Below the pieces are notes generated by a model. The model ran no database searches and was not told the origin of the DNA. It saw only the letters and a program-made list of their open reading frames with translations. Below are positions 16,405 through 40,100 of a DNA stretch of 64,000 bases, one piece after another. How positions within the stretch are numbered: the stretch's first letter is position 1; every line of letters begins with the position of its first letter. This DNA is from a virus. Taxonomy: Duplodnaviria; Caudoviricetes. A program made the position numbers and the translations under genes. The stretch lies in IMG/VR virus record IMGVR_UViG_3300029705_000042, one strand, 5' to 3'.

Positions 16405-16632
16405 TTAATCCTCACACAGTACATATTTACCATATATAGACTTAGTTCCATTTGAATCAACAAATGGAATATCTATGGTCTGTATCTTCACGCCTCTGTT
16501 TCTAAGTCTAAAAATAATATCGCTCAATCGAGTAGCCTTGTATAAATCAATCGCTTCTAAACTCGTAATACAGCCATATGTATGTAAATGCTCTAAGACC
16601 TTTTCTGTTTTATTCTTTTTCTTTTCACTCAT
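16405..16632 (-). CDS. winged helix-turn-helix protein
   Basis: VLEHL..G.ITSLEA..Y.ATRLSDIIFRLR..G pattern. Confidence 0.7.
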   Translation of the reverse strand: MSEKKKNKTEKVLEHLHTYGCITSLEAIDLYKATRLSDIIFRLRNRGVKIQTIDIPFVDSNGTKSIYGKYVLCED

Positions 16633-16680
16633 TTTTCTATCCTTCTTTTTTAAAACTTTCTTGATATATAAATTTAATTA

Positions 16681-18539: not shown

Positions 18540-18573
18540 AATGTTTACCTTATAATATTATTTGTTGTTTATA

Positions 18574-20814: not shown

Positions 20815-20818
20815 CTCG

Positions 20819-21271: not shown

Positions 21272-21304
21272 ATTCTCACCTCATTTTATATATTTATATA
21301 CCCC

Positions 21305-21338
21305 TATACCCCTAAGACACGAATATCATAGGGGTATA
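21305..21338. repeat. inverted repeat/hairpin
   Basis: tataccccta ... taggggtata. Confidence 0.6.
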
Positions 21339-21358
21339 ATATGGTATAACTTTAATTA

Positions 21359-22471
21359 TTACTTACAAGCCTTAAGGACTTCTTTGGCAACAGAAATATC
21401 ATCAATTTCCATAGGGTTGCCAAAACCAGCGTTCTTACAAATCTTAAGTACAGGCTTAATCACATCAAGGTTTGTCTTATTATTATTGAAGAACTCTACA
21501 ATCTCTGCCTTGATTTCATTGAGTTCTTTTGCAATACGAGCAGCCTTTTCCGCTTCTGCAATACGCTTAAGATTCTCTGCATTTTCCTTGTCGTTTTCTT
21601 TCTTGCGGTCTTCTACCGAAGTGCCATTCTTATTAATCTCAGCCTTAATTGCATCAGTAATTGCCGTGATAAATTCATCTGCATCAAGATTAATTTCGGG
21701 AACAATATCAGAGAATCTTGAACCAGAATCAACCACGAAAGAGTCATCTCTAAACTTAATCTTTCTTGTTTCGTCCTTGATAGTAGTCTTAATCTCTTCC
21801 TTCTTGGTTACGATATTTTTCTTGCCAGTCTTTTCCTTCTGCAACTCTCTATCAAAGTATGCAAGGCAGAGGAAGTGAAGATTCTTCTTTAACGCATTAA
21901 AGTAGTTCTGCTGCTGGTCAGAAGTAAGAACCTGATATGTTTCATCGTTATAAATATTCTTTACTTCCTTGGTCTTTACATGACCAATCCACCAAACTTT
22001 GACGCCAACACTTTCAAGTCTATCAATTTGTTCAAACATCAAATCTATTACTTTCTGTCCAGAGCCAAATCCACCCCAGCTTTGATTGAGCGTTTTAGCT
22101 CTCTTATCGGGATTATCTTTATTCCAAAGTCGGATTGCCTCGTCGATAGCCATTAAAATATACTGGTCGTATGTATCCACAAAAACAACTCTAAGGTCTG
22201 CGTAATCCGTAGTCTTATTGTCTACGATATCATCAACAAACTCTATCCAATCATCCCAAGTGGGAAGATTTTCTGCGACAATGCCTTCAATTGCGTCGGC
22301 TCCTCGCTCTCTGAAAAGCTCGGCAAAGATATACCCGTCTTCACCTACGAGCTTTTCGGCAACTTGATAAAGCAAAGAGGTTTTGCCGATTTTGGGTTCG
22401 CCTAACATCATAAGCGAATAATTAAAAGGGTCAACCTTTACCTGATTCTTCTTACCAAATTTTCTTGCCAT
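21359..22471 (-). CDS. AAA_24/Sak4-like ATPase (SPbeta YorG-like)
   Basis: GEPKIGKTS, VFVDT, WIGH. Confidence 0.82.
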   Translation of the reverse strand: MARKFGKKNQVKVDPFNYSLMMLGEPKIGKTSLLYQVAEKLVGEDGYIFAELFRERGADAIEGIVAENLPTWDDWIEFVDDIVDNKTTDYADLRVVFVDTYDQYILMAIDEAIRLWNKDNPDKRAKTLNQSWGGFGSGQKVIDLMFEQIDRLESVGVKVWWIGHVKTKEVKNIYNDETYQVLTSDQQQNYFNALKKNLHFLCLAYFDRELQKEKTGKKNIVTKKEEIKTTIKDETRKIKFRDDSFVVDSGSRFSDIVPEINLDADEFITAITDAIKAEINKNGTSVEDRKKENDKENAENLKRIAEAEKAARIAKELNEIKAEIVEFFNNNKTNLDVIKPVLKICKNAGFGNPMEIDDISVAKEVLKACK

Positions 22472-22495
22472 TCTATCATTCTCCTATCTTTTACA

Positions 22496-22840
22496 TTAAT
22501 GCAAAAACTCACAACCGCCACAGCCGTTACAACAATCGCACTCATCTTCAATCAAAATATCTTCATATTCATTTATAAAAACTTCGTTCAATGCATCTAA
22601 CAATTCAAACATAGTGTCGCATACAAAAATAGCATCGTAAACGGTCAACTTGACTCGTTCATAATCAGACGGACAATTCATATCAAATTCCCAAACCCAA
22701 TCCTTCTCGCCATCATATACGCCTACAGCAAACTTTGGTTCGCTACCATACTTAACAAGTTCTACATACTGCGAAGTCGTAATATCATCTAAAGGGCGAA
22801 CTTCAATGTACTCCTTATTAAAAGTTTCACAATAAATCAT
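22496..22840 (-). CDS. acidic hypothetical protein with Cys-rich tail
   Basis: C-terminal CDCCNGCGGC. Confidence 0.65.
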   Translation of the reverse strand: MIYCETFNKEYIEVRPLDDITTSQYVELVKYGSEPKFAVGVYDGEKDWVWEFDMNCPSDYERVKLTVYDAIFVCDTMFELLDALNEVFINEYEDILIEDECDCCNGCGGCEFLH

Positions 22841-22866
22841 AATTTTCTCCCATATTTTCTTTTGTT

Positions 22867-22890
22867 GAGAGGGATTTAATAATCCCTCTC
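22867..22890. terminator. hairpin, possible terminator or processing stem
   Basis: gagagggatt taat aatccctctc. Confidence 0.55.
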
Positions 22891-22919
22891 TTATATAAAT
22901 TTAATTGTTATGTATTAAC

Positions 22920-24092
22920 TTAAAGATTATTGAGCCAGCTCATGCTATCGTCTGCGTCCGCTTCTTCATCCGTGTCAAACGGAGGTTCGTCATCCTTGGT
23001 ATTAGACTTCTTATTATCGTAGAGATAATCAAGTACAAGGTCATCCTCAGTAAATCTCTCCTCAAACTTCTGGATAACAGGAACCTTGTTATCGCCATTT
23101 TCTACCATTTTTATCTGAGGCTTTACAAGTACCATTCGTCTTTCACGACTACCGTTGGCGGTACACTTAGCAAGAGCCTCATCCTTTGTATAAACACCCA
23201 TCTCAACAAGGTCTTTTATATCGTCAGGAATATCATCCCAAGTTGCGGTTACGACGGCGCCACCTTCAATAAACTCGCCTTCAAAAGTAATCTGCGTAAT
23301 TCCCTTCTTAACCTTGAAAAGCTTTTCCATAATCTTCTTACAAGCAGTTTCATTAGAGAAATCCATTGCAAACTCAAACTGCTTATTATAAGGATACTGC
23401 CCCTTTACTTCGATGCCATTAACTTCCTTTACATAGTCAAGCACCCTCGCATCAATATACATAATGCCCTTGTCCTTGTCGATATTCTTAAGACTTGCGG
23501 ATTCCTTATCAATAAGAATGGACTGAGTAAAGGTTGCCTTATAATTAGCTGTGTCCTCTACCTTAGAAAGTACAACACTTGTAATATTCTTGCGAACCTG
23601 AACATTATCATTATATGTGCTATACTTAAGACTACCCTTAACATTAACCACTATATCTGCGCTAAGATGCTCCTTTATGTATGCGATGGCATCATAGGCT
23701 GAAAGAAACTTCTTATAAAAGGTGTTACCCTTATCTGTCTTTTCAAGCCCAACAGTGATAAACGAAAGGTCTCCGATTTCCTTAAGAACCTCATCATTGT
23801 CTCTATCATCCCAATCTACAATAATCTGGGATTCAAAATCATCAGACCCGTCTTCTTTCTTGCCATGTGCATAAATCTTGTTTTCGTTCTCTTCACTATA
23901 GCCGCCCATAAGCTCTGCGTATACAGTGCCATACTTCTCTCCGCAATCAACGCCAAGATTCAGTGCATTGTAAACCCAATTTGACTTATCAGACTTTTCA
24001 TCAATCTTGAATGTATAGTCGTTGATAACAGGCTTGCCAATGAGAGTGAAATTCGACACCCAATCGCTTCGTTTAATTGTCTTTTTTTCCAT
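22920..24092 (-). CDS. putative single-stranded DNA-binding protein (SPbeta YorF-like position)
   Basis: Beta-rich with acidic tail DDEPPFDTDEE..; first gene of the replication operon. Confidence 0.6.
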   Translation of the reverse strand: MEKKTIKRSDWVSNFTLIGKPVINDYTFKIDEKSDKSNWVYNALNLGVDCGEKYGTVYAELMGGYSEENENKIYAHGKKEDGSDDFESQIIVDWDDRDNDEVLKEIGDLSFITVGLEKTDKGNTFYKKFLSAYDAIAYIKEHLSADIVVNVKGSLKYSTYNDNVQVRKNITSVVLSKVEDTANYKATFTQSILIDKESASLKNIDKDKGIMYIDARVLDYVKEVNGIEVKGQYPYNKQFEFAMDFSNETACKKIMEKLFKVKKGITQITFEGEFIEGGAVVTATWDDIPDDIKDLVEMGVYTKDEALAKCTANGSRERRMVLVKPQIKMVENGDNKVPVIQKFEERFTEDDLVLDYLYDNKKSNTKDDEPPFDTDEEADADDSMSWLNNL

Positions 24093-24125
24093 ACATTTTT
24101 CTCCTTAATAAATAAATTAATATAT

Positions 24126-24172
24126 ATAACCTTATTGGTTACTAAGAAATGATATGTAACACAAATTGTTAC
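24126..24172. promoter_or_regulatory. two RTAAC-N7-GTTAC palindromes just downstream of the replication-operon promoter
   Basis: ATAACcttattgGTTAC (24126) and GTAACacaaattGTTAC (24156). Confidence 0.6.
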
Positions 24173-24178
24173 ACTAAT

Positions 24179-24207
24179 ATTATACTACGATAACATTTAA
24201 ATGTCAA
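24179..24207 (-). promoter_or_regulatory. sigmaA promoter
   Basis: TTGACA-17-TATAAT with upstream A-tracts. Confidence 0.85.
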
Positions 24208-24237
24208 TAGTATTTTTAAAATTTTTTTAAAAATTTT

Positions 24238-24663
24238 TTAATTCAAATAAAAGTTCACAGCATACTCGACAGCTTCTCTAATACTTTCACACATTCGAGT
24301 TGTAAATTCGATAAGCCACGGATGAAGCTCTTGATTACCAAGGTTGATTCCAATAATTGGTATGTGCAACTCCTTAGCAATTGCCAATTCGGCGGCAGTA
24401 CCTATGCTCTTTGGGTCATTAAAATTTACTATAACCAAATCGGAATTTCTTAAAGCATTTAAATCAAACTCCATGACCTCACGCTCTGAACGATGTCTAA
24501 TTTCTTCAAAATTATAATAATTAACTGGGTTAAAAAATATAGGTTTCTTCTCGCAATCATAATTAAACTTAATGGCATCAATTACCTGCTGCCTCCACTT
24601 TGACTGCTCTTCGTAAGATAATGCGCCCATACCTCCACTAAGGTATATACGAACCTTCTCCAT
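24238..24663 (-). CDS. nucleoside 2-deoxyribosyltransferase / nucleotide N-glycosidase family protein
   Basis: IYLSGGM, WR, FNP, FDL..L..SD, SIGTAAEL. Confidence 0.85.
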   Translation of the reverse strand: MEKVRIYLSGGMGALSYEEQSKWRQQVIDAIKFNYDCEKKPIFFNPVNYYNFEEIRHRSEREVMEFDLNALRNSDLVIVNFNDPKSIGTAAELAIAKELHIPIIGINLGNQELHPWLIEFTTRMCESIREAVEYAVNFYLN

Positions 24664-24696
24664 ACACTCACCTCTTCTCCACTTAAAATCGCTATT

Positions 24697-25014
24697 TTAT
24701 AACTTGTTATATCCTAAAATATTATGTTGTCTTGCCAACTTTAAAATATTTTCATATTCTAAAGGCGGTTTTCTTTCGAAGGATTCATAATATCTTTTTA
24801 TTTGCTGAGGTCGTGCCAAAAGTTTCGTAACAAGTTTTCCACTATTAAAATTGTATACAATGATAACGCCTTCGTTTGTTATACAATGGCGTTCTACACC
24901 TTTAGGATGACCTTTATCAACAATAAATTCATCAACTATATAGCCGTTGCCAAAATGCTCGTCAATAAACTTTTCTCGTCTGTGCCTTTCGGTTTCATAG
25001 TGTTTGCTGACCAT
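24697..25014 (-). CDS. hypothetical protein (start MVSKHY)
   Basis: 105 aa; stop in site 24684. Confidence 0.6.
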   Translation of the reverse strand: MVSKHYETERHRREKFIDEHFGNGYIVDEFIVDKGHPKGVERHCITNEGVIIVYNFNSGKLVTKLLARPQQIKRYYESFERKPPLEYENILKLARQHNILGYNKL

Positions 25015-25402
25015 CTTTCTTTTCCTCTTTGTAACCATCAAACACATTGCCAATAACTTCAATAAATTCTGTAGTTTCAGAACCCAAAGTGTAGAATTCG
25101 TCGCTATTAACACACAAAATTACCCAAGCGGAAAGCTCTACGGCGAATGCAACTAATCCTATTACAGACTTATCTTCTGACACCTGAGCGAGAATGTAGT
25201 CTCCTTCATGAACCTGCTTCTGATTTTTATCCCACAAATCAATTGCTTTGTGATAAACATACCTATCTTGAGAAAGTGCAAGTGGAACTTTGACCGCCCC
25301 AAAAACTGACTTCTTAATCAAAAAGAGTTCGCCTTCTGGATTTAGATAAATATTATCTTTTATCCATTTTTTCTGTTCATTGTCATATACACGATACGCC
25401 AT
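24995..25402 (-). CDS. YopX-family protein
   Basis: YRVYD...KW; DKN.K.V.EGDYI; EVIGNVFD. Confidence 0.8.
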   Translation of the reverse strand: MAYRVYDNEQKKWIKDNIYLNPEGELFLIKKSVFGAVKVPLALSQDRYVYHKAIDLWDKNQKQVHEGDYILAQVSEDKSVIGLVAFAVELSAWVILCVNSDEFYTLGSETTEFIEVIGNVFDGYKEEKKDGQQTL

Positions 25403-25411
25403 AATGCCTCC

Positions 25412-26542
25412 TTATATTTCTATTAATTTAATCGCTTTGTCGATTTCGCCTATCACATAATCAATATCTTCATATGTAATATCATCGGATATGGTGATAC
25501 GAATCGTTTTCATTGCTTCCTCGTCTGTTAAACCTATTGCTCTAAGCACATGAGATGGAGCAATTGATTTACTATTACACGCTGAGCCTGTTGAAATTTG
25601 AATGCCACTCAAATCTAAAGTGTATAACAATGACTCTCCAGTTATATTCTGTGGAAAGGTTACATTGATGTTGTTTGGTAATCTATTAACCACAGAACCA
25701 TTAATTGTACAATCAAACTTCTCAACAAGTCTTCGCATAAAATACAATTGCTTTTCACATAATTCCATGAATTTATTATAATCTATAACTTTAATAGCTT
25801 CTCCCAATGCAACAATGCCAACCGTGTTCTCTGTACCGCCTCGATTTTTATTTTCTTGTTCACCGTATATTAAAGGTGACAACTCAACATTTTTTGACTT
25901 ATAAAGAAATCCTGTCCCTTTTAAAGCACCTAATTTATGAGCTGAAGCTGTCATTAAATCTATACCAAGCTCTTTTACATCTATTTGGATATGAGGCAAT
26001 GCCTGTGTACAATCTGTATGCAATACGGCGTTATACGAATGAACTAAATATGAGATTTCTTTAAGGCTTTGTACAGTGCCTATTTCGTTTTGGGCATAAA
26101 TAATAGATACTAAAACCTTTTTCTCTTTGCAAGATTTCAGCAGAACTTCTAAATGTTGTAAGTTAACAAACCCTTCTTTATTTACATCACAAAACAAAAC
26201 TGTAGACCTTAATGCTGGATTTTTTAATGCGTTCAAAATAGACGAATGCTCAAGATGTGTTGTAATTATTACCGATTCATTTTGATAATTAAGGTCATCA
26301 AAACCACGAATAATATGATTGTTACTTTCAGAAGCTCCAGAAGAAAATACAATTTCTTCTGCGTCCGCATTTATAAGCTTTGCAACATTATTTCTTACTT
26401 CTTCAATTTTCTTTTTTATATCTATAGATGAGCCATATAAAGAAGAAGGATTATACCATTTTTCAGTTAAGTATGGGATTATTGCTGCAATAATTTCTTG
26501 CTTGGGTTTTGTAGTGGCGGCAGTATCTAAGTATAAACTCAA
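25412..26542 (-). CDS. iscS: cysteine desulfurase (IscS/NifS type)
   Basis: YLDTAATT, NPSS, EHSS, NEIG, HTDCTQ, SAHK (PLP Lys), RGGTEN, STGSAC. Confidence 0.93.
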   Translation of the reverse strand: MSLYLDTAATTKPKQEIIAAIIPYLTEKWYNPSSLYGSSIDIKKKIEEVRNNVAKLINADAEEIVFSSGASESNNHIIRGFDDLNYQNESVIITTHLEHSSILNALKNPALRSTVLFCDVNKEGFVNLQHLEVLLKSCKEKKVLVSIIYAQNEIGTVQSLKEISYLVHSYNAVLHTDCTQALPHIQIDVKELGIDLMTASAHKLGALKGTGFLYKSKNVELSPLIYGEQENKNRGGTENTVGIVALGEAIKVIDYNKFMELCEKQLYFMRRLVEKFDCTINGSVVNRLPNNINVTFPQNITGESLLYTLDLSGIQISTGSACNSKSIAPSHVLRAIGLTDEEAMKTIRITISDDITYEDIDYVIGEIDKAIKLIEI

Positions 26543-27273
26543 AATTCCACCTCCTCTACACTGTTACCATAAGAATATTCGCCAAAAAATATATTTTCCC
26601 ATATTTTTCGTTGTGCAACAGCGTCTTCAAAATTGTCAAACCCTCTCTGATGGCGTTGTTTATTTGCAGAAATGTTCGCTATCCATTTATTTTTTGACTT
26701 ATCCCAACTGACACCCGTAACGCCAGAAGTATTATTTATATATTCTTTTTTATTCATCATATTAACAGCGTGAGTAACAGGTCGTAGATTGATTTTTCGA
26801 TTATCATTTGTTTTGTGATTTTTATGGTCAACTTCCTCAGCGTTTGGGAATAATATTTCATGAAATTTTACTTTTGTTTTATTTCTTTTTGCACAAACAT
26901 AACCATCATTAAACCACCAACAATAGTCTTTAATTAAATCATAATCTTCTAAATCAAAATAGAACTCTTCTCCTTTGGTTGTATAACCGATTCCAAATTC
27001 GCCAGATAAATCGTATGTATTATATTTTTTATTTTCATTGTTGTACTTTGTAATTTTCTTAATCGAAGATTCAATTATCAAACATCCGCAAGATTGTGTA
27101 CTTTTTGACTTTAATTTCTTACCTTGAACAACAACATTTTTATTCCCACAATCACATTGACAAATCCATTGAGCAAGATGGCTGCCATCTCTGTTTATAT
27201 AGTCTTCAGTTTGTTTAATTACCAACAATCTTCCAAATTTTTGACCAGTTAAATCCTTTTTGACTTTAACCAA
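26539..27273 (-). CDS. free-standing HNH-AP2 endonuclease
   Basis: DLTGQKFGRL, WICQCDCG, SCGC, VDHKN..DNRKINLR, NTSGVTGV. Confidence 0.88.
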   Translation of the reverse strand: MVKVKKDLTGQKFGRLLVIKQTEDYINRDGSHLAQWICQCDCGNKNVVVQGKKLKSKSTQSCGCLIIESSIKKITKYNNENKKYNTYDLSGEFGIGYTTKGEEFYFDLEDYDLIKDYCWWFNDGYVCAKRNKTKVKFHEILFPNAEEVDHKNHKTNDNRKINLRPVTHAVNMMNKKEYINNTSGVTGVSWDKSKNKWIANISANKQRHQRGFDNFEDAVAQRKIWENIFFGEYSYGNSVEEVEF

Positions 27274-27941: not shown

Positions 27942-28316
27942 TCAGTTAAAAACAGTTATTCTATAATATATATTCTGAATATTTAAGACAAATTCAAAAA
28001 AGCCATTAGACACACTATAGTAACACTCTTTTATTTCCGATAACAAAACATTCATAAAGTATGTATCATAACTATCAATATTCTTTTTTAGAACAAGTCT
28101 AGTTCCGCTATTCTTAACCAGCATTTTCTTTTCGATTGTTCTCAGTAGAAGCATATATGGAATTGAAGAAGAAATAAGAGGATTTGATGGGTAAACATCT
28201 ATATGTACTTCTTTTAATTTCGTATCGTCTTTAAATATTTCGTTTAATTTCGTATTTTTTTCGTCTTTTGCGAAACCAAGTTTCATCATAGTTTTTTCAG
28301 CCATATTGTATGTCAA
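27942..28316 (-). CDS. hypothetical protein
   Basis: 124 aa with RBS. Confidence 0.6.
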   Translation of the reverse strand: MTYNMAEKTMMKLGFAKDEKNTKLNEIFKDDTKLKEVHIDVYPSNPLISSSIPYMLLLRTIEKKMLVKNSGTRLVLKKNIDSYDTYFMNVLLSEIKECYYSVSNGFFEFVLNIQNIYYRITVFN

Positions 28317-28341
28317 TTCCTTCCTTACTATGTATAGTAGT

Positions 28342-28382
28342 GTATTACCACAGAATACATATTTAACGCTCTGTGGTAATAC
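28342..28382. repeat. 13-bp inverted repeat
   Basis: gtattaccacaga ... tctgtggtaatac. Confidence 0.75.
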
Positions 28383-28461
28383 TCCCTGAAATTATACTAC
28401 TATAATATTTAGAAAATTACAATACTAAATAGAACATTTGTTTGATGATAATTTTATCCAA

Positions 28462-29409
28462 TTAGAAAGAGTCAAGGTGTCCCTTAACGAGTTCACGAAA
28501 ATTGCCAATTTCAATACCGCTATTTGAACGAATCAATTCTTTTTCTATTATCATATGAGCCGTTCTATTTCGTGAGTTTTGCGCAAAAGCTTCTTCTAAT
28601 GGAATGCGACTCTTTTCTAATTCCACTTTAATTCTATGCATAATTCCACTTGCATATAATTGTAACGGAAGTAAAGAATATTCTAAATACTCTTTTGCTA
28701 TCTTTCTTAGCTTGGCATAGTATGTGAACTTATAACTATCATTTGAAGCAGTTGACCTATTCTCAATTTTAAACACACTATCTGAATAAACGCCTCTCAT
28801 ATCAACTTTGCATATACCAAACCTATTTCTACGCTCCCAAATATTAATATCTGCAAGTTTCTTTAAATCAGTTGCAAGTTTTTCTGGTACTTTCAATTTG
28901 TAACTATGTCCGTTGTCTTCTTGTAAAGTTATTACACCATCGTCATTAATATCGGACTTTCTTAGATTCTTTAGAACGCTTAAATCATCATTGTATATAC
29001 CAAAATAAATACAAGAAAAAAGTAATTCATAATACAATGCATTGTATTCTTCATATGTAGCAATTTCTTTAATCACTCTTTTATATTGCTCATTAGATAT
29101 AAATTTCTTTTTTGCGTTAGGCTTTGCTTTCTTCCACAACAACTTCTTGTCCAATGATTGAATTATTTGATAAAGACTATCATCAGAAACTATGCCTTGT
29201 TCTTGCAACCACTTTGCATACATTCCTAATACATAAGTAATAGTGATTATTGTTTTAGGGCTACTCGGTTTTAAATCAAGTATAAACTGTTCTAATTCCA
29301 TTAAACCATAATTTTCGATATTGACATCAGTATCTCTCAGTACAAACTTCACAACCTTTAATGTGTTCGATACTTCGATTGATTCAATAAATCGCTCGAT
29401 ATTGTTCAC
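28462..29409 (-). CDS. degenerate tyrosine-recombinase-fold protein, MrpR/YopR-like repressor candidate
   Basis: Y..WL, KFIS, LLF..IY.GI...L..LKNLRKSDI; no HxxR or catalytic Tyr pattern. Confidence 0.55.
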   Translation of the reverse strand: MNNIERFIESIEVSNTLKVVKFVLRDTDVNIENYGLMELEQFILDLKPSSPKTIITITYVLGMYAKWLQEQGIVSDDSLYQIIQSLDKKLLWKKAKPNAKKKFISNEQYKRVIKEIATYEEYNALYYELLFSCIYFGIYNDDLSVLKNLRKSDINDDGVITLQEDNGHSYKLKVPEKLATDLKKLADINIWERRNRFGICKVDMRGVYSDSVFKIENRSTASNDSYKFTYYAKLRKIAKEYLEYSLLPLQLYASGIMHRIKVELEKSRIPLEEAFAQNSRNRTAHMIIEKELIRSNSGIEIGNFRELVKGHLDSF

Positions 29410-29555
29410 AGTTTATTCCTTCTTTCATATGATATTGTTTTAATATATAATATCACATTATAGACAAACCAATCAACAATATAGACTTATGATTGCTAAA
29501 ATTTATATATTTAGGAATTAGACGGCAAATAAAACTATGTTTTTAAGTGGTGAAT

Positions 29556-30305
29556 TTACGGCTGAAAACGTGGAATAGGCTGAAGCTTGAAAAGATTTTT
29601 CTGATGCATTTCGTCAATTCTTCTTCTTGTTTCTTCATCTTCACATATGCCTGTACGAATATATTTATTCAGAACTTCATAAGTAAAACCAAATCTATCT
29701 TCGTCTGTCTTACCACAAAGTCCATCAGAAGGAATTTTATGTGTGAGTTCATAAGGAAGACCACAAGCATCACCAACTGCAACTACTTCTTCGCTTGTGA
29801 GATTTGCAAGCGGACAAAAATCACCAACATTATCTCCCCAACGAGTTGAGTAGCCGATATAACTCTCAGAAGCATTATCTGTGCAAGCTACTCTGCCATT
29901 AACAGACTGAGATATTGCATAGAGAGTTGCCATACGAATACGAGGAGGGAGATTGATAGCAGTCTGCTGAGAAATATTTTTATCAAATACAAGTTTGAGC
30001 TGTTCACTAATTGCTTCTTTTACTCCGCAAACTGCGTCGCTAATATCTGCCATAATACAATGAATATCAAGATAGTTAACTAAATAAATAGAATCATTAA
30101 TATCTAATTGCTCTCCATTTGGCATCAATACACCAATAACTCTATCATTGCCAAGAGCTTCTGCACAAAGTGCAGCAACTACACTCGAATCCTTACCACC
30201 AGAAATGCCAATTACGGCGTTGCAACCATTACCGTTTTCCTCAAACCAATCTCTAATCCAAGCAACGATTCTATCTTTTACTTCTACTGCATTAAAATTA
30301 TTCAT
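29556..30305 (-). CDS. nadE: NH3-dependent NAD+ synthetase
   Basis: GISGGKDS, RIRM, GYSTRWGD, PSDGL, TDE; start MNNF after RBS. Confidence 0.95.
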   Translation of the reverse strand: MNNFNAVEVKDRIVAWIRDWFEENGNGCNAVIGISGGKDSSVVAALCAEALGNDRVIGVLMPNGEQLDINDSIYLVNYLDIHCIMADISDAVCGVKEAISEQLKLVFDKNISQQTAINLPPRIRMATLYAISQSVNGRVACTDNASESYIGYSTRWGDNVGDFCPLANLTSEEVVAVGDACGLPYELTHKIPSDGLCGKTDEDRFGFTYEVLNKYIRTGICEDEETRRRIDEMHQKNLFKLQPIPRFQP

Positions 30306-30705
30306 ATACAATCTCCTCATTTTCAATCTTAGTGATTAACTTGTCCAACATTCTATATACAGAAGGCAAACCGCCTCTATCATCAATATAAACATTTCCA
30401 TAAGTCTTACGACCACCGACACATACGGAGCTGTCACAATTAATACCTTTATATTTAATGTTGTTATCTGCCAAATACTTTTCTATTTCAGGATACTCCT
30501 CTTCTCCATTACCAGTTAAAACCACAACTTCTGAATAATTTTCCCATCTATGAAGCAAAGAAATAACATCGTCATATCTTCTTCCTACTTTATGAAAATC
30601 ATAAATTGTATCGTCAAAGTCAACACAGAAGATGAGCCTTCCATATTTCTTAAACTCATCTTCTATTCTTTGATAACAATTTTCTTCTGAAAGATAAAAA
30701 TCCAT
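30298..30705 (-). CDS. HAD-superfamily phosphatase-like protein
   Basis: VDFDDT, LTG, K, YIDDR. Confidence 0.75.
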   Translation of the reverse strand: MDFYLSEENCYQRIEDEFKKYGRLIFCVDFDDTIYDFHKVGRRYDDVISLLHRWENYSEVVVLTGNGEEEYPEIEKYLADNNIKYKGINCDSSVCVGGRKTYGNVYIDDRGGLPSVYRMLDKLITKIENEEIVYE

Positions 30706-32201
30706 TAAAACTTACCTCCGTGCAATATATCTCTAATTTCTGCGAGAGACTGTTCTTTAACCATCACTCCGTCCTTAAACACAGAGACCAATCTATTGTA
30801 ATTATTCTCATAAGCTTCCTGCCAAGAATAACCATCCTCATATGTAAGTTCTTTTGTATATCCTCTCCAATCAATAGACTCAAGTTGGTCAACAATACAA
30901 CAGCCCTTCTGAGACTTCTTGAAGCCACCATCTTTTGGATTCTTAAAAATAGGAGTTGGCTTACCATCAATCTCACAATAAGTTGCCTTGATGCAAGAAC
31001 TGAAAGTATCACGAGTAAAAGGCTTCAGAATACCGTCTTCTTCGACACACTGGAATGAGAAAGAACCAACACCAAGAGCAACATTAGAACAAGCAAAACC
31101 GTTCTCCATAAGAATCTGATAAATCTGTTCACAACGCTGGATAGTAATGCTATCTCCATAAATTGCCTTTACATGAGGGTCAAGAACCTTATAACCCTTG
31201 CTATTGATAGTGCCACCAAAAATATCCCAAAGTTTAAATACAGTCTTGGTTACGACTTCAACACAATCACCAGAATCTCCACGCATAAGCATACAACCAT
31301 TATGTGCAAGGATTTCATTCTTAAGCTTAGGAAGAATATTATCAATCACATTCCAATAATCATAAGAATCGAGTACGGCAGAAAAACTTGTGTTGGGATA
31401 AATTTCTGTGAGCAATCTTCTGAGAAGAGTTTCTTCATCACCATCAACAGCATAGTTACTACACATTACGGAGTGCTCGGTAGAAGGTGAACCAAAAGCC
31501 ACAGGTTCTTTTGTGCAATCACAATTGTAATAAGCCTCAAGATAAGGAATGGTAGGAACAGTTGCAGTAAGCAAGAATGACAGACACCATCCAGCACCTG
31601 CCTTTTCAGCAGACTGAAGACATTCTTCTCCTCTGAAGTCAAATGCACCAAGTGCTTTTGCTCTCGGAATACTATCATCACAAGTAAGGTCGTAATACTT
31701 ATTAACAATCTCTCTGTATGTATAACCTACCGTTGCAGCAAGCATAAGATGCCACATTTCAGCAGAAATAAGAGATTCAAGAGACTGAGGCAACCAAGCA
31801 AAATCAGGATGAGTATTGGTTATGCCAAACATTGGTACATGCATCGGCACGAGAGTACCTTCGGGAAGGGCAATAATTTCGATAGGAAGATAACCGAGCT
31901 GATGGAGCTTTTCAATCTTATCAATCTTATAAGCATCTTTGCCGAGAGTAGTATCCATTATTCTCTTGTATTCAGAGATAACCTCATCAAAGGGCTTGTT
32001 GAAAAACTCATCATTAAAGTAATCAATCAGATAGGTCTTGATGAATCCCTGCAAACCGAACATAACTACTTTGTCCCATCTCTTCACTCGGCTCATACGA
32101 GGAGTAAAGTAAGATACAGACTTAGTAATATTTTTAGGGAGCATTTCAGCGTGTACCGCCTTGTAAAAATCAATTAGCAACATAGGATTTGTTCTTCTCA
32201 T
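30705..32201 (-). CDS. NAMPT/NadV-fold phosphoribosyltransferase (Namat-like), probably nicotinate-preferring
   Basis: DFYK, FRG, TEHSV, DSYD, RGDSGD, IYGDSIT, KS.KG. Confidence 0.9.
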   Translation of the reverse strand: MRRTNPMLLIDFYKAVHAEMLPKNITKSVSYFTPRMSRVKRWDKVVMFGLQGFIKTYLIDYFNDEFFNKPFDEVISEYKRIMDTTLGKDAYKIDKIEKLHQLGYLPIEIIALPEGTLVPMHVPMFGITNTHPDFAWLPQSLESLISAEMWHLMLAATVGYTYREIVNKYYDLTCDDSIPRAKALGAFDFRGEECLQSAEKAGAGWCLSFLLTATVPTIPYLEAYYNCDCTKEPVAFGSPSTEHSVMCSNYAVDGDEETLLRRLLTEIYPNTSFSAVLDSYDYWNVIDNILPKLKNEILAHNGCMLMRGDSGDCVEVVTKTVFKLWDIFGGTINSKGYKVLDPHVKAIYGDSITIQRCEQIYQILMENGFACSNVALGVGSFSFQCVEEDGILKPFTRDTFSSCIKATYCEIDGKPTPIFKNPKDGGFKKSQKGCCIVDQLESIDWRGYTKELTYEDGYSWQEAYENNYNRLVSVFKDGVMVKEQSLAEIRDILHGGKF

Positions 32202-33004
32202 AATTCAAATACCTCAATCTTTTCATGTTCTTTTGTAAAAATACTATTAGTTGTATAAACTCTTTCAATTAAACCGCTTGTAAGAAGTTCTCCTTCAAGG
32301 ATGGTGTTCTCGCAATGAGTTATATAAAGATATACGTTCTTAGCACCAGCTTCTTTTAACGCCTTGGCAGAGTGATAGAAAGTACCACCACGAGAACAAA
32401 TATCATCAATAATTAAGACATCTTTATCTCTTACAATATCTCTATTCATTAGTTCAAGACCAAGAATCTTACCCGTTTCCCAATCACGCTTTTTAATTCC
32501 GAAAGCATAAGCACCCTTTACATAATCCGTACCACGCTTCATTGCACCTTCATCTGGATAAAAAGCAACTAAATTAGTTTTATTCGGGATAGCTGCAATT
32601 GTTTTATCAATCATTTCCTGCGGATGTTTAACCTTAACATTATTGATAAGTGCCGTACAAACATTGCTATGTGGGTCAAGGATTCTAACCTCAGTAAAAT
32701 TAAGACTATTAATCACATCGGCAAAATGCTTCAAAGTAAAAAATTCATTAGGACTTTTAACTCTATCCATACGAGCGTGTGGACAATAAGGCATTTCAAG
32801 AATCATATCTTGTTTATCGAAATGTTTACGAATACAGATTATGGTAAACAGTTCGGCATCATTTTCATAATGCCAAGTAAGCCTCTTTGCACTTTTACCA
32901 AACCAATCTAAACTAAAAATAGGCTCTGCATAGTCAGTTTCAATTCTTAAAGAGTTATCTGGAAAATGAGCCTGTGTTACAAGCTTGTCGTTTATTTTAA
33001 TCAT
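32198..33004 (-). CDS. PRPP-synthetase-like protein (Adps-like candidate)
   Basis: FPD, PY.P.ARMDR, DPHS, PDEGA, K.RD..TG, IIDDICSRGGTF. Confidence 0.9.
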   Translation of the reverse strand: MIKINDKLVTQAHFPDNSLRIETDYAEPIFSLDWFGKSAKRLTWHYENDAELFTIICIRKHFDKQDMILEMPYCPHARMDRVKSPNEFFTLKHFADVINSLNFTEVRILDPHSNVCTALINNVKVKHPQEMIDKTIAAIPNKTNLVAFYPDEGAMKRGTDYVKGAYAFGIKKRDWETGKILGLELMNRDIVRDKDVLIIDDICSRGGTFYHSAKALKEAGAKNVYLYITHCENTILEGELLTSGLIERVYTTNSIFTKEHEKIEVFEL

Positions 33005-33006
33005 AA

Positions 33007-33525
33007 TTACTCTCCAATTATATTAATCTGGCACATCTTCATAGTTGTAAGTGCTGCCTTGTGCGTTTCGGGAGTTACACCAGCACAACAACTTGCATCA
33101 ACTGTAATGTTAGCGTTGGGGAACTGCGCCTTAAGGATAAGTGCGTTAGATACTACACATATATCAGTACAAAGACCTACAAGTTCAATGTCTTCGAAAT
33201 CGTCAAATTCACATTCATAATTCCAAAGAGTATAGCCAAAAGTTCTTTTGTTGATATGCTTGTATTCAGGATAATTTACTGCATCGGCAATTATCCAACC
33301 ATATGTTCCATTAATACAATGCTCAACAGGAAGATGCTTACCCTCGTTTGTTTCAAGATAATTAGTCTGATGGGTGTCTCTCGTAAAAATAATCTCATCG
33401 CCACGAGCCTTATATTCTTCAATCTTCTTTTTTACATTCGGTACAATAGCCTGTGCCTCTTTAGTGCCAAGAGCACCGTCAATAAAGTCGTTCTGCATGT
33501 CTACTACAATTAATGTTCTTTTCAT
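33007..33525 (-). CDS. pncA: nicotinamidase (isochorismatase family)
   Basis: VVDMQNDF, DTH, HC, K.TF, GLCTDICV. Confidence 0.88.
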   Translation of the reverse strand: MKRTLIVVDMQNDFIDGALGTKEAQAIVPNVKKKIEEYKARGDEIIFTRDTHQTNYLETNEGKHLPVEHCINGTYGWIIADAVNYPEYKHINKRTFGYTLWNYECEFDDFEDIELVGLCTDICVVSNALILKAQFPNANITVDASCCAGVTPETHKAALTTMKMCQINIIGE

Positions 33526-33556
33526 TTCATTTTTCTCCTTTTGTTACCTTAATAGT

Positions 33557-33639
33557 ATAACTTTAATTGTTATTAAGTGATAAAACCGTAAAATGTTTTA
33601 TACCAATGATATTATAACATAAATACTCTGAATTGTCAA
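33557..33639 (-). promoter_or_regulatory. sigmaA promoter (33611-33639) and downstream ATAAC-N7-GTTAT palindrome (33557) of the NAD operon
   Basis: TTGACA-17-TATAAT; ATAACtttaattGTTAT. Confidence 0.8.
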
Positions 33640-33676
33640 TACTTTTTTTAAAAAAATATCATTTAAAATTAAGTTT

Positions 33677-36532
33677 TTAAAGCTCTTCGGTATAATGATT
33701 GATGGTGTATATAATATCATCTGCACAATTTTTACAATACATTACTTGTGAGCTTAATTTTTCATATGGACTTTTTTCTAACTCACGACTGTATGACGAT
33801 ATAGCATTTGCACAGTCACTAATATCATATTCATACTTGGGCTTAGGATTAAGCTCTGCTTCACCGACAGTGATTGTATAATAATGTTTTCCCACAATCT
33901 CTTTTCCACATCTATCACAATGCAACTTAACCATAGATTACTCTCCCCACTTTCCAGTGTATCTTTCAATAAACTTTTCAGGAACAAATTCTGTATTTAC
34001 ACTAATATACGGACTTCTTTCAGTTTCATCTACATAACAAGTAATGGTAATACCACATCTGTACTTATAATCATTAACAATCTTTTCTGCATTATCAATC
34101 AAAGACTGACCACAATCCTTAATATTCTGAATGATATCATTATTCATCTTAGCCATCTAACTTACCTCTTAAAATATAATTTTTATGTATCCTTCTTTTC
34201 TTCTCTGCAATGTACACTGTCCCAATCATAATCTGCATCCCTTACCATTTTCGCAATCTCTCTCAAGACATCATTGTATGCAGCATGTTTCCCATTGACA
34301 AAGCCCCTTTCGTAATCGGTTTTACAATGTCCAAAATTCATTAGCCTCTTTGAACGAGAACAAAAATACTGCAAATTATATAAAAGTTTTCTGTATTTTT
34401 TTATATTAATACTTCTCATTATCGTACTCTTTCCCAACGAATAGTTTCAGGGAATATATGGTTGGAATCAAAAAACTTAATAGTGTTATGACAAACAGGA
34501 CAATTTATGCAATTGTAATGCTGCTTGTAAACATTAATATATTCTTCGGTTGGTCTAAAAAGATGTTCACAAGTCTTCCTTAGACCACCTCGTTTTTCTT
34601 CTACCAAGTGAAACATATCCGAATCCGTATATTCCAAATCGGTGTTACAAAATCGACAGGTTGTTCTGTGAACTTTTTCATATCCTTTTTTAACTACTCT
34701 CATATTAGCCTCTTTAATATCTTCAATTCACAATGCAAACAGGTGTTACATCTTCTTTGGTCAATTCATATTCCTCAAGGTATTCTTCAAGGTCTTCTTC
34801 TCTGTACATCTCGCCATCTTCGTCAACATATCTAAAACTTGGGTCAAAATATACTTCGTGATATCCATTACCTTCGTCATCCGTAGCATACCAACAATCA
34901 AGGTCGCCATGCTCTGCCATAAACTCCTGCAAATTCTTAATCATCTCTGAAATCTTCATAATTAGTTCTCCTTTAAAAATATTATCAACTTGATATTGTT
35001 AACTTCTCAATAAAACCCTTCATTAATTCCTTAATGAAATCTTTGTCTTCGTTATCGTCCATACATTCGGATTGAGCATACCATTCATCGGAACCAACAG
35101 ATTTATAAATCACATATTCACCAAATCCAATATCAGAAGCCCATCTAATAACGAAGCCAACAAATTTATCGTTTACAAATGGTTCAATGTCATAAGCTTC
35201 TAAATTAATCTTATTAACCTCATGCTTTCTTGCCATATTTACACCTCTTAAAAGTATATTTTTATTTGTTCAGGCTCTTTTAAATCCCAATCGTTATGCC
35301 CAAGACTATACATTTCTTCGTAACATTGTTCGGTTATTGGTATAGCAATACAATTAGGACATCCAATTTGTTTGCACAATTCTTCTGGTGTTATAGGTAA
35401 TTCATTTTTAACATAACAAAGAGGAACTTGTGAACTTGTGCAAATTTTATAATACTTCATATTCTTATCACCACTTAAAGTTTCATTTTTTATGTTGCCA
35501 ATCCAATACTCTCAATTCTAAAATCAGATATCTTTCCATCTTCAATTTTATTAATAATAATATTAGCACCACTATGAAATACAACGCCATCTAATGTCAT
35601 TCTGCAAACTTGATTCTCATAATCCCAAGTACTAATATTATCGGTAACAAAACCAATAACCTTATCTTGATATCTACTCTCCTTATCTTTGTAAATAATC
35701 GGAGTGTTTATACTAAAATTACTAATAGCATTTTCAACAGCTTCTTTGGTAAATACAGTTCCATTCTTATTTGGCGTATCAAATGCAATAGGCATTGTAA
35801 TTTTTATCTTAATCAAATCATCTTTCATAATTGTTCATCCATTAAAACTCTATTTTTATTAGATACCAGATTACTTTTCTTTACAGTTTACATAGGCAGC
35901 TTTAAAATATGTTTCTGTATATTCGCCCATACCATATCCCTTGGTTCTTGAACTAACTGAAATATCAACATTATCAGTTGTAACTGTATATCCTTCTCTA
36001 TTTAAATAATCTGCAATAATTTCTTTTACATCACTTTCTGAAAGTTCAATTCTAATATTCTTTTTAATCTTCATATTATTCACCTTTTAAATTCTTTTGC
36101 TTCTTATCCAAACATTCACCTAAATCTTTTAAAACATTATAGATGTTACGATAAAATCCATATTTTGATACAACTTCTACTCCAAGTTCTTCCAGATGGT
36201 TTATTGCTAAATCCAATTTTCGTTTCTCTTCCATTTCTTCTTCGAAGGTTTGGTCATACGCTAAAACTCCAAAATTGAGGTCTAAAGCTCTCTCTACATA
36301 TTTATCGCTTGAAATACTACTAATACTACTCATGTTTTTATCTCCTTTTAAAATTTTATTTTTATTAGCTCTTTACTATCTTTCTACGCTTGCATTTCTT
36401 ACAAACATATACCCATTTATGATATGAAGGTATACTATCGTAGTAACTATCATACACTGGAACCTTTTCCATCAAACATTCCCATTCGTGCTTGCAAAAC
36501 CAAGAGCGAATTATATCGATTATATATCCCAT
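33677..36532 (-). other. array of small accessory genes (33677, 33938, 34183, 34419, 34723, 34985, 35248, 35490, 35871, 36076, 36365-36532)
   Basis: Packed 55-112 aa ORFs with RBS, several Zn-ribbon-like, punctuated by palindromic sites. Confidence 0.75.
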
Positions 36533-36535
36533 AAT

Positions 36536-37198
36536 CTACCTCTTAAAGTTTGTTTTTATAGCCTTAATTCTTTTGCAACATACAACGCATAGCCCCAATT
36601 CAATTCTTTTGGTTGATTACAAATTTGCCTGTATGCCAAGAACATCATTTTTGCAATTACATCATACGAAACTCTACCAGTTAAACCACCAAAAGCAGGA
36701 ATTACTATACTGTCCACATCTTGTTTTAATGCTTCGATAAGTGTAGTTCTCATACATTGATAAACAATTCTGCTATCTACAATTTGCTCAGGAGTTCTCA
36801 TGCTTGGAGTATGAATTAGAATTGGATTACATTGCAGTATTCTTCCGTTATCTATTTGCTTATCATAAAACCTGCTTACAATTGGAACACTGATACTTGT
36901 TCCCACTGGTTGCTCTCCATACCAATCCATAAGAATTACATCTTGGACATCTTTCATAAGTTGCTTTCCAAAGTAATCTGTAATTGCTTTGTCGTAGCCA
37001 CCGTCCATAAGACCAAATGAGTTGGCAGGAGATACAATGGCTTCAATGTCTGGATGCTTACCCATAAAAGTTGCAAAATCTTCGTTTACGATTTCGACAT
37101 TTGGCAAATCAAAATATTTGTACCAAGCATCTGTCATTGATTTGTTGATATCCAATAAATATATCTTCATAATACTACCTCTTAAAAGTTTGTTTTTA
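36536..37198. repeat. 23/24-bp direct repeat flanking the macrodomain gene
   Basis: ctacctcttaaa(a)gtttgttttta at 36536-36558 and 37175-37198. Confidence 0.9.
36556..37170 (-). CDS. macrodomain (ADP-ribose binding/hydrolase) protein
   Basis: IVSPANSFGLMDGGYD.AI, HTPSM, PAFGGLTG. Confidence 0.9.
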   Translation of the reverse strand: MKIYLLDINKSMTDAWYKYFDLPNVEIVNEDFATFMGKHPDIEAIVSPANSFGLMDGGYDKAITDYFGKQLMKDVQDVILMDWYGEQPVGTSISVPIVSRFYDKQIDNGRILQCNPILIHTPSMRTPEQIVDSRIVYQCMRTTLIEALKQDVDSIVIPAFGGLTGRVSYDVIAKMMFLAYRQICNQPKELNWGYALYVAKELRL

Positions 37199-40100
37199 AG
37201 TGTTGCTTATAATCTCTTCAACTACGAATTTAGGGATATAAACAACTCCGTATTCTTCGTTAGTATCAAGATAATATTTTAAAGTTTTCTTTATATGGTC
37301 TGTATTGTAAATAAAATCTTTGCAAGTAATTTCTTTATCTGCAATTGTGCTATATTCACATATTGCATAATGCAAACATTTTTTACACTTCATGTTATCA
37401 CCACTTAAAATTCGTATTTTAAAATGCCATAATATGTCCCGATTCAACACCAAGTCGAGTAAGTTGTTCAACCTTGCGTTCAAGTTCGTCTACTTTTAAT
37501 CTAAGACTATCTCGCTCTTCAAGCACAACAGAATATTCTTCCATTGCTCTTGCTACCTTTAGACTTTGATTCTCTTTTGCCCTTAAAATCTCACATTCAG
37601 CATCAATATTCTTTTCTGCATTTTCCATAAGAAACTTGTAGTGTTTTCTACTAATCCACATAACTTCACCTCACAAATATTCTTTTTTTACTTTTTCCCA
37701 AAATTCTATTCGTTCTTTTGTAAGAACCTTCTTTGCAACATGTTTATCCGACACTCTTTTACCAATATAAGCGTGTCGGTGACAATAATGATACACATTG
37801 TTATCAATATTACAATGGAATGACTTTGGATGATTAGCTTCTCTGCAACATATACAACAGTATTCTTTTACCGTCATTCTCTCATTTGTAGTTTTAATTA
37901 AATCGGATTCACTTTTGAACTCTGAACAGCTCTCGCCATTAACCAGAACATCGTTGAAATTCGGTGCATAAACCGCACAAACTACATGATGAATACAATC
38001 CCTGCAAGTTGACATTATCAGCTTCCTCCAATATTTCTTCTGTGATTCGGCTTATTACTCTTATTACATCTGAAACTTTTACTTCATCTTTGTCGGTATA
38101 TGTTCCAAAGTATATTGCCACATCTTCTTGTATCTTTCGTACAATATTTACCCTGAGTTGTACAATACCATCATATATTTCATCAAGCATTCTCATTTGA
38201 TTTTGATGTTCTATTCTCGATTCTTCGCTTTGTTTTTTAAGAAGGATTACAGAACTATCAATATCATATTTTAAATCTTCGTTTTCTTTGATAAGTTCCT
38301 TGATAAGTTGTAAAACAATATCTGCCAAATCGCTCGAACAATTCTGTTCACAAATGCCTTTTGTTTCAAAATAACAGCCAACACAATTTGAAAAATTAGG
38401 CTGCGATGCAAAACATTCCAAAGCCTTTATAATTTTTTCTTTATCCATATTTACTTATTATACCTTTCAGTAAGTTTGTCAAGCTCATGAATGCATTCCC
38501 ATACCGCCTCTGCTCTTCCTTGATAAAACATTTGCCATTTTTCATCAAGTCTGCGTTTATCTGCATGATTTCTATATTTATGGTAGAGTTCAACGAGATG
38601 GATTCTTGTCTGCCACAAATCATTTACAATTTCACTCTGTTTATGGTAGCCCTGTTCTTTTACAATTCTCTCAATCGTTATACATTGAGTCATAGGCAAC
38701 TTTGTTTCATTCCATAGTTTCCAAGCAAATTTAGAATAACCACTCATACCCATCTCATTAAGATTTTGATAGTCATTTGTTGTACTTATATCAATATGTT
38801 TTTCTCTATCCATATCAACCTCTTAAAATATGTTTTTTATTCGTTTAAATCTTTCCATTCTGCATTGCCTGTTAATAAAGCATATATGCCAAGAGCTTTA
38901 TCTCCATGAAATATATTTACAATCTTTAAGTCGTTTTCTCTGATTCTTCCGACACATAAAGTTGGCGCATCAGACAAAGTGCAATCATAAGTTATCGTTA
39001 AGTAATCTTCCATATCAACCTCACAATGCTTCTAACTGCTTTTCAAGTTCATTAATTTTTTTATCGCAATACTCACGAATTATATTGGTTAATTCATTGT
39101 CGCACAAAGTAATTTCATCTTTACAATAAGCAGACAGCCATAAAAACTTCTTCATTAAGATATATTTCTTATAAGCACTATCACATATCCTTCGAAGCTT
39201 ACGATAATTCTTTAGCTCTTCGTGTATCTCTTCTGCCTTTTTATATGTTGCAATTGTCATATAATCTTACCTCTTAAAACACCCATTTTATTATTCTTCA
39301 TTCCAAACAATGCTCTCGTATTCTTCGGGCATTAACCAATAAGGATAAGCGTCACCAAATTCCTGTTCGCCATAATTATAATCAATGGCAACAATGCCAA
39401 GACCCTTTTCATCATATCGAACAGTCATAACATACTCGGCATTAAGCAAGAATATAACCGCATCTCTGATAGCGTTTTCAAATTCTTCCTGAGAATCATA
39501 TTTATTTCTACAAATTACAATCTGATTAACTTTGTTCATATATCTTTACCCCTTATTCCTTTATCTTTCTAAATCCGTAAACATACTTTGCAAACCGCTC
39601 CCAGTTCAAATGTAATTGGTCATAAAAATCTACCTTCTCACCGACATCAAGATTAACATAATACCTATAAGTTCGACGCTCTTCTCGCTCTTTATTCAAT
39701 CTGTCAAGCTCTTCATTGTCAATGTGAGGCACCCACGAAGTAATTACAATCTCACATTCCGCTCTGCTCCAAAAATGATACCGTGCAATACGATTTAATT
39801 TTTCAGAGAACTCATCATAGGTTAAATTTTCCTTTAATAGTTTTTCAACATCCTCTCTAAAAGAATGATGTTTAAACACATTATATATCTTTATCTCTCT
39901 ACCATTAATATCGTGGTCATATACATTCCAAATCATCTGATTCTTTTCGTTCATACTTTGCGCCCTCCTTTGATTTGGTCATAAATCTACTACACACCTT
40001 ACCGCCGCAAGCTGTTTCACAACCAACGAAATATTTACATTCAGGACACTCTCGCTTTATGTTTATTGCTTCGCTTTCTAACCACATCTTGATTACTTGT

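Follow-up and report, generated by a model that had tools for sequence, protein, structure and literature searches.

A phage operon predicted to rebuild NAD+ from ADP-ribose and nicotinate: a candidate nicotinate-type variant of NARP1

NAD+ reconstitution pathway 1 (NARP1), known from Bacillus phage SPbetaL1 and Vibrio phage ICP1, consists of the two enzymes Adps and Namat (bioRxiv 10.1101/2024.02.11.579819; PMC12774641; PMC13586617). Two extended forms have since been described, NARP1-AP of Vibrio phage Gary, in which Adps and Namat are joined by the Macro-domain phosphatase Adpp (bioRxiv 10.64898/2026.01.28.702374), and the RyDEP-extended NARP1 of Mycobacterium phage DyoEdafos (bioRxiv 10.64898/2026.05.28.727677); both Adpp and RyDEP convert other NAD-derived molecules into ADP-ribose (ADPR) (bioRxiv 10.64898/2026.01.28.702374; 10.64898/2026.05.28.727677). 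NARP2, of the Vibrio phage KVP40 type, combines Nampt with NMNAT/Nudix, and NARP3 combines PnuC with a NadR-like protein (PMC13464706). Here we describe a five-gene operon in a 64,000-nt stretch of gut-phage DNA (hereafter the window; IMG/VR record IMGVR_UViG_3300029705_000042, Caudoviricetes, Duplodnaviria), in which an Adps-like gene and a Namat-clade transferase gene lie together with genes for a nicotinamidase-like protein and an NAD synthetase. On balance we consider it probable, if not strongly so, that this operon is a nicotinate-type NARP1 variant that rebuilds NAD+ from ADPR and nicotinate via deamido-NAD (nicotinic acid adenine dinucleotide, NaAD).

The operon occupies positions 33525 to 29556 on the minus strand and consists of tightly packed genes encoding, in order, a PncA-like hydrolase, an Adps-like kinase, the Namat-clade transferase, a small HAD-like protein and NadE. 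Between the first and second genes there is a 2-nt gap; the three junctions that follow are overlaps of 4, 1 and 8 nt. A preliminary description of the window, made from the letters of the sequence, had proposed a packed operon of these five genes, and all of them are present, on this strand and with the coordinates it gave.

In the proposed pathway, nicotinamide freed when host defence NADases split NAD+ would be converted by the PncA-like enzyme to nicotinate and ammonia, and the Adps-like enzyme would use ATP to turn ADPR into its pyrophosphate (ADPR-PP). The transferase, having lost an amide-binding Asp (now Ala213) and gained Ser240, would join nicotinate to ADPR-PP to give NaAD directly, with no adenylyltransferase, and the ammonia-type NadE would convert NaAD, ATP and ammonia to NAD+, spending a second ATP. 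The HAD-like phosphatase may be an optional helper that turns a phosphorylated ADPR derivative into usable ADPR, or that removes pyrophosphate; both roles are guesses made by analogy with Adpp and RyDEP. The preliminary description also raised the speculative possibility that NaAD escapes cleavage by defence NADases.

The transferase (498 aa; 30705..32201, minus strand; phrog_448, 2e-154), which we propose to be a nicotinate ADP-ribose transferase, carries the evidence most specific to this reading. Its best solved structures are 9w5x and 9w5w (1e-119), with human NAMPT far behind (1e-43); the 9w5x/9w5w chains share their length and residue numbering with SPbetaL1 Namat and were matched to it by these features, not by direct comparison. 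The phylogeny of the transferase that the preliminary description had called for, a maximum-likelihood tree of 28 sequences, splits Namat from Nampt with support of 100/100 and places the window transferase within Namat, apart from Nampt. It is 44% identical to SPbetaL1 Namat and keeps the catalytic core (Phe189, Arg192, Arg306, Asp308 and the histidine of the EHS motif).

The base pocket is altered. In crystal structures of SPbetaL1 Namat, Asp215 hydrogen-bonds the nicotinamide and Ala242 lines the same pocket, and the D215A mutation lowers activity 8-fold, leaving about one eighth (PMC12774641). The equivalent residue of NAMPT, Asp219, defines its substrate specificity (PMC7096376). In the window, the GTDT of SPbetaL1 is replaced by LTAT (Asp215 to Ala213) and ATEHS by STEHS (Ala242 to Ser240). 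A NAMPT D219S mutant reportedly accepts nicotinic acid. The loss of a negative charge and the gain of a hydroxyl are what a carboxylate-binding pocket would need. The preliminary description had proposed nicotinate rather than nicotinamide as the base, which implied a change in the base pocket that was invisible to its author, and the Ala213/Ser240 change gives that proposal in silico support. A further substitution, Ser190 to Asp, was considered as part of the base switch and rejected, being confined to the clade of the window enzyme and absent from locus L001 and from the gut phage Phass-1.

To place these residues in context, 108 transferase genes with 6-kb flanks were gathered from IMG/VR and GenBank phages. 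The Ala/Ser pair is invariant in all 99 transferases of the window's type, down to 33% identity, and all 99 stand in loci of the window's kind. Genes for PncA, Adps and NadE lie within 6 kb of about 90 of them, and in eight of the nine exceptions a contig end truncates the locus; the other, L009 (IMGVR_UViG_3300035497_000375), is the sole Ala/Ser locus with full flanks that has Adps and NadE genes but lacks PncA within 6 kb. The nine canonical Namat/Nampt enzymes (from SPbetaL1, Alicyclobacillus phage KKP_3916, Manatee Spring phage, Staphylococcus phage G1, ICP1, Gordonia phage SpeedDemon, Bacteroides phage DAC15, RB43 and Vibrio phage D483) all keep Asp or Glu together with Ala, and PncA and NadE are absent from all nine loci. 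The pairing of Adps with the transferase is conserved in about 100 loci, and the gene set is maintained even where identity between partner proteins falls to 41–57%. It recurs in the same order in Phass-1, which uses genetic code 15 and whose transferase is 33% identical to that of the window. In the tree, the Ala/Ser enzymes fall into a single clade (98/95), in which Phass-1 occupies a long branch. The possibility that the Ala/Ser state arose more than once was considered, and the sampled tree gives no instance of it.

These patterns bear on the possibility that the operon is an ordinary NARP1 with unrelated helpers, in which the transferase would act on nicotinamide while PncA and NadE boost the host's deamidated salvage or detoxify nicotinamide. 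The residual activity of SPbetaL1 Namat D215A is in keeping with such an arrangement, as is the fact that phage scaffolds without Namat also carry PncA-like and NadE genes. We nevertheless regard it as very unlikely, given the invariance of Ala213/Ser240 set against the uniform Asp/Glu plus Ala of the canonical enzymes, and given that a nicotinamidase in the same operon would destroy the substrate of a nicotinamide-using Namat and so starve it.

Two further loci in the collection have partly overlapping contents. In a 735-kb uncultured phage (LR756501; L124, positions 3623–9991), NadE, a homologue of the HAD-like protein and a distant PncA-like gene lie within 6.5 kb, and Adps and Namat went undetected in the 14-kb stretch, which may hold a different deamidated NAD module. 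In the gut-phage scaffold MT836475 (L125, ∼7490–7675), NadE adjoins a 604-aa open frame faintly similar to the transferase, which may be a PncB-type enzyme.

The partner of the transferase is an Adps-like homologue of Prs (268 aa; 32198..33004, minus strand; phrog_619, 2.9e-69) and a candidate ADP-ribose diphosphokinase. It is shorter than canonical Prs enzymes, without their C-terminal region, and scores under the cut-off of every ribose-phosphate diphosphokinase model (92 bits for TIGR01251, cut-off 113). Identity is 38% to SPbetaL1 Adps (1e-48) and 36% to ICP1 Adps (3e-31). By alignment, the protein retains Phe18, Arg87, His121, Asp161, Lys185, Asp212 and Asp213 of ICP1 Adps, residues that serve ADPR contact and catalysis in the ICP1 Adps structures (PMC13586617), and its PP loop (DDICSRGGTF) is of the Adps type. 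Phe92 alone among the tested residues is changed (to Lys), at a position that varies in SPbetaL1 too.

The donor side of the transferase is less uniform. Namat selects its donor with a clamp of the form G-S-X-phi-X-phi-X-phi-T-R-D, where X is aromatic, together with the Arg40 loop, and the double mutant of Arg40 and Phe392 is the clamp mutant most damaging to ADPR-PP use (PMC12774641). [quoted passage not shown] Arg40, Phe392 and Thr-Arg-Asp 398–400 are retained. The insertion (VEEDGILKP, protein residues 386–394) lies in the clamp helix, is strongly conserved across the window's clade, and is absent from Phass-1 and from all canonical Namat/Nampt. Phass-1 has a full aromatic clamp (GAYTYQYVTRD) together with the Ala/Ser pocket. 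That ADPR-PP rather than phosphoribosyl pyrophosphate (PRPP) would be the donor in the window is our assumption, based on the clade, on those clamp residues that are retained and on linkage to the Adps-like gene.

The one-step formation of NaAD would make a phage adenylyltransferase dispensable. No match to PF01467 was found among the 40 open reading frames (ORFs) of the window that were scanned (most of those of at least 150 aa; two ORFs, of 162 and 210 aa, and those under 150 aa lay outside the scan), and the NMNAT-like protein of a related phage, used as a query in tblastn and phmmer, returned nothing in the window. To this extent, the earlier observation that no adenylyltransferase could be recognised in the window is borne out. 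Among 14 related operon-carrying records, nine are without a PF01467 match; these include six rated 100% complete (the contig of L006, the closest relative, among them) as well as the complete Phass-1 genome. Since most of the complete relatives are without PF01467, the pathway would appear to be independent of a phage adenylyltransferase.

The first and last genes of the operon fit the deamidated chemistry. The PncA-like protein (172 aa; 33007..33525, minus strand) belongs to the isochorismatase-like hydrolases (PF00857, 8e-26), and its best solved relative is the Pyrococcus horikoshii pyrazinamidase/nicotinamidase 1ilw (9e-13). Its Asp9, Lys89 and Cys123, corresponding to the catalytic triad, and its Asp50, His52 and His69, corresponding to the nicotinamidase metal site, all align with 1ilw. 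The score against the PncA equivalog model NF008623 is 39 bits, under its cut-off of 174, with the match confined to residues 1–56. NadE (29556..30305, minus strand) is a single-domain, ammonia-type enzyme of ∼250 aa (TIGR00552, 164 bits, cut-off 63.65; PF02540, 1.9e-48), with the SGGKDS PP-loop at residue 42 and no glutaminase domain. Its probable start, as read at the junction, is the ATG at 30305 behind GAGGAG; the mechanically called ORF begins at TTG 30326. The PncA reaction frees ammonia, and a NadE without a glutaminase needs it.

Several points weigh against the nicotinate-type reading. All of the substrates and products, and the counter-defence role, are inferred, with in silico support, and the route costs one ATP more than NARP1 without a demonstrated benefit. 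The second-best solved relative of the window NadE is the Francisella NadE 3fiu, and Francisella NadE acts as an NMN synthetase (PMC3376133), so that the window enzyme may act on NaMN instead of NaAD. Because the Ala/Ser enzymes form a single clade, their constancy reflects one evolutionary event kept over deep divergence, not repeated convergence. Four fragmentary gut-phage scaffolds have a PncA-like gene with no Namat on the scaffold; with these and with L009, which has no PncA, the statement that the PncA-like gene always stands beside Namat was rejected as an absolute. On the donor side, the adenine-contacting Tyr396 is replaced by Cys, followed by the conserved 9-aa insertion, so the adenine clamp is altered, and SPbetaL1 Namat also accepts PRPP in vitro (PMC12774641), which makes the formation of nicotinic acid mononucleotide (NaMN) possible. 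Five of the 14 relatives (L070, L069, L120, L121 and L122) carry a PF01467 gene away from the operon, and a nadD/nadM gene elsewhere in the genome is what the preliminary description had named as refuting its reading; the other nine relatives show none. An ordinary Preiss-Handler route could also be completed by NadD of the host.

This last group of points leads to a specific alternative, a phage-boosted Preiss-Handler salvage that involves no new reaction, in which PncA would make nicotinate and the transferase would act as a nicotinate phosphoribosyltransferase. Its PRPP would come from the host or from the Prs-like enzyme working as a true PRPP synthetase; the resulting NaMN would be adenylylated by host NadD, and phage NadE would carry out the last step. 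Beyond the PRPP-dependent activity that Namat keeps in vitro, the loss of Tyr396 in the window clade and the NMNAT-like genes of the five relatives, it can draw on the catalytic core that the Prs-like enzyme shares with PRPS. Host NadD is nearly universal in bacteria. However, the transferase falls within the Namat clade with Arg40 and Phe392 kept, Phass-1 combines a full aromatic clamp with the Ala/Ser pocket, and the partner enzyme is Adps-like, below all Prs cut-offs and lacking the C-terminal Prs region. A phage would also have little need for PRPP, yet the Adps-like gene is kept beside the transferase. We therefore judge this route rather unlikely. As to the PF01467 genes themselves, the protein encoded at positions 1480–2073 of L070 is archaeal NadM-like, of 197 aa, and scores well below the family cut-offs. 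The five relatives also include one 416-aa open frame that could be NadR-like and a 245-kb record in which the gene lies ∼8 kb from the operon.

The fourth gene (30298..30705, minus strand) encodes a protein of 135 aa that is a candidate small HAD-like phosphatase (phrog_1238, 5e-21). The HAD motifs DFDDT (residues 29–33), Thr64, Lys100 and Asp108-Asp109 are invariant in seven homologues, and a neighbouring cluster of the Atlas, labelled "HAD-like," scores 0.94. Sequence searches of Pfam, NCBIfam and the PDB gave no match, and a PDB profile search gave matches at chance level. The AlphaFold2 model is weak (predicted local distance difference test score 64.6); Foldseek returned nothing at E ≤ 0.001, its weak top matches being the HAD phosphatases 2hhl and 1xpj. 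The label HAD given to this gene in the preliminary description is thus plausible from its motifs, which are present, while a family-level match is absent. An alternative identity as the Macro-domain Adpp was rejected, given the HAD motifs and the lack of any Macro match.

The HAD-like gene is found in about a quarter of related operons. In the canonical Adps-Namat operon of Bacillus phage Nemo (L123, 1563–4393) a homologue comes third, and others adjoin Namat in DAC15 (L056, 3989–6730) and in Phass-1. The gene is an optional, recurrent NARP1 accessory and not specific to the nicotinate type. Homologues occur in 92 phage records, under database labels such as "phosphoheptose isomerase," "hydrolase," and "polynucleotide kinase," and apparently constitute an undescribed NARP1 accessory family.

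A true Macro-domain gene lies elsewhere in the window. It encodes 204 aa (36556..37170, minus strand) and matches PF01661 Macro (1.2e-8) and PF14519 Macro_2 (1.4e-7), two of the three families by which Adpp was called in Osterman et al. 2026 (bioRxiv 10.64898/2026.01.28.702374). It stands ∼3 kb and roughly ten small ORFs upstream of the operon, beyond the distance of two genes from the NARP1 pair applied in that preprint. Its nearest phage homologues carry Appr-1-p processing or macro-domain labels, and among the matches listed they do not lie beside NARP1 genes. The protein is a possible Adpp-like ADPR-1''-phosphate phosphatase that feeds the pathway from outside the operon proper.

The operon has its own promoter. 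A sigma-70-type sequence (33611..33639, minus strand; TTGACA, 17 nt, TG-extended TATAAT) matches the consensus at 12 of 12 positions, the sole such match in a pattern scan of the ∼9 kb from 28300 to 37400. It lies ∼85 nt upstream of the PncA-like gene and is followed by an AAGGAG ribosome-binding site, read directly from the sequence. The 16-base palindrome TAAAA-N6-TTTTA occurs directly upstream of this promoter (33664..33679) and again 11 nt past the NadE stop codon (29530..29545), marking upstream and downstream cassette boundaries. A pattern search found 44 copies of the palindrome in the window against 1.2 expected, with none in the 4.1 kb between these two. From the one promoter, the overlapping genes and the flanking palindromes, we conclude that the five genes form one promoter-equipped unit, and the NAD operon has the look of a single large cassette in a phage whose other cassettes hold small genes. 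The flanking palindromes do not recur at related operons in other phages, and are thus a feature of this phage lineage rather than of the operon. A megablast search of the operon against 50,697 phage records returned no near-identical DNA.

In related phages, insertions of 0.4–1.5 kb are seen between the PncA and Adps genes; these may be HNH/AP2 homing-endonuclease-like, as are three paralogous HNH plus AP2 genes of the window (20059–20814, 26539–27273 and 47431–48189, minus strand).

The operon is set in a part of a large phage's genome that serves replication and accessory functions. The segments 764–11513, 14585–26542 and 49958–53540 encode dUTPase, an NrdG-like radical SAM protein, NrdD, a RecD-like helicase, DNA polymerase III alpha, an N6/N4 DNA methylase and a PD-(D/E)XK nuclease, as well as a DnaB-like helicase, a class-V aminotransferase (cysteine desulfurase-like), and SprT-like, GmrSD_N and tyrosine recombinase proteins. 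A single tRNA-Leu(TAA) gene lies at 56412–56498 (minus strand).

This position, in a region of nucleotide metabolism and replication with NrdD, NrdG, dUTPase and DNA polymerase III alpha, and the gut hosts inferred from the sources of the samples, would suit a general auxiliary metabolism, in which environmental niacin would serve to raise NAD+ for phage replication in gut anaerobes poor in NAD, independently of anti-phage NADases. An Adps-like enzyme, however, implies ADPR as feedstock, which accumulates when NAD+ is cleaved, and experiments connect NARP1 and its add-ons with NADase defences (bioRxiv 10.1101/2024.02.11.579819). We accordingly give this account a low probability. It concerns the purpose of the operon and not its chemistry, and it can coexist with the rebuilding of NAD+ from ADPR and nicotinate.

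A literature search returned no description of NARP1 or Namat linked to nicotinamidase, NadE, nicotinate or NaAD, and the reaction of nicotinate with ADPR-PP to NaAD was not found described for any enzyme. If the nicotinate-type reading is correct, NAD+ would be rebuilt from ADPR without nicotinamide or an adenylyltransferase, by a reaction new to NAD metabolism, and the operon would add a fourth branch to the known ways in which phages counter NAD-depleting immunity. Phages of gut anaerobes would thereby have a means of coping with settings in which nicotinamide soon loses its amide group or in which niacin is the base at hand. The Asp-to-Ala and Ala-to-Ser pair would provide a simple sequence rule for telling nicotinate-type from nicotinamide-type enzymes, which databases annotate alike, and the repeated occurrence of the HAD-like gene suggests another, unexplored NARP1 accessory. 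We are evenly divided on a broader version of the proposal, according to which the transferase makes deamido-NAD in one step and there is a four-enzyme "deamidated NARP1," common among gut phages and mobile as a cassette with its own promoter, with the HAD-like proteins as a second, non-homologous class of NARP1 feeder phosphatase.

Compared with the described systems, the operon shares with NARP2 and NARP3 the phage-encoded restoration of NAD+ against NAD-depleting defences. Both of these need an NMN adenylyltransferase, whereas the window and most complete relatives yielded none in the searches made, and the transferase here lies outside the Nampt clade. The Preiss-Handler pathway (PncA, PncB, NadD and NadE) resembles the operon in having PncA first and NadE last, in its deamidated logic and in the freeing and later use of ammonia; here, however, an Adps-like kinase and a Namat-clade transferase stand where that pathway has PncB and NadD, so that NaMN would be bypassed, with ADPR taking the place of PRPP and ATP. 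With NARP1-AP and the RyDEP-extended form, the operon has in common an extra gene, here a phosphatase-like one between the transferase and NadE, along with the Macro/Macro_2 gene 3 kb upstream. It differs from them in that the accessory within the operon is HAD-like, not Macro or RyR, and in that the Macro gene lies outside.

The likeness to NARP1 itself lies in the adjacent Adps-like and Namat-clade pair, whose genes overlap by 4 nt, with the transferase core and the Adps catalytic residues kept. The transferase of the window departs from that of NARP1 by Asp215 to Ala and Ala242 to Ser in the base pocket, and by Tyr396 to Cys with the 9-aa insertion in the clamp helix, and the pair is accompanied by a nicotinamidase and an NAD synthetase, both of them dispensable for NARP1. 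The same arrangement is seen in Phass-1 (OQ749652), where "nicotinamidase" is listed in a table of the original paper and the pathway is not discussed (PMC10607447). Phass-1 differs in its genetic code, in a full aromatic clamp without the 9-aa insertion and in the low identity of its proteins (33–47%), but it has the nicotinamidase, Prs-like, NAMPT-like, HAD-like (139 aa) and NadE genes in this order, and its transferase carries the same Ala/Ser pocket.

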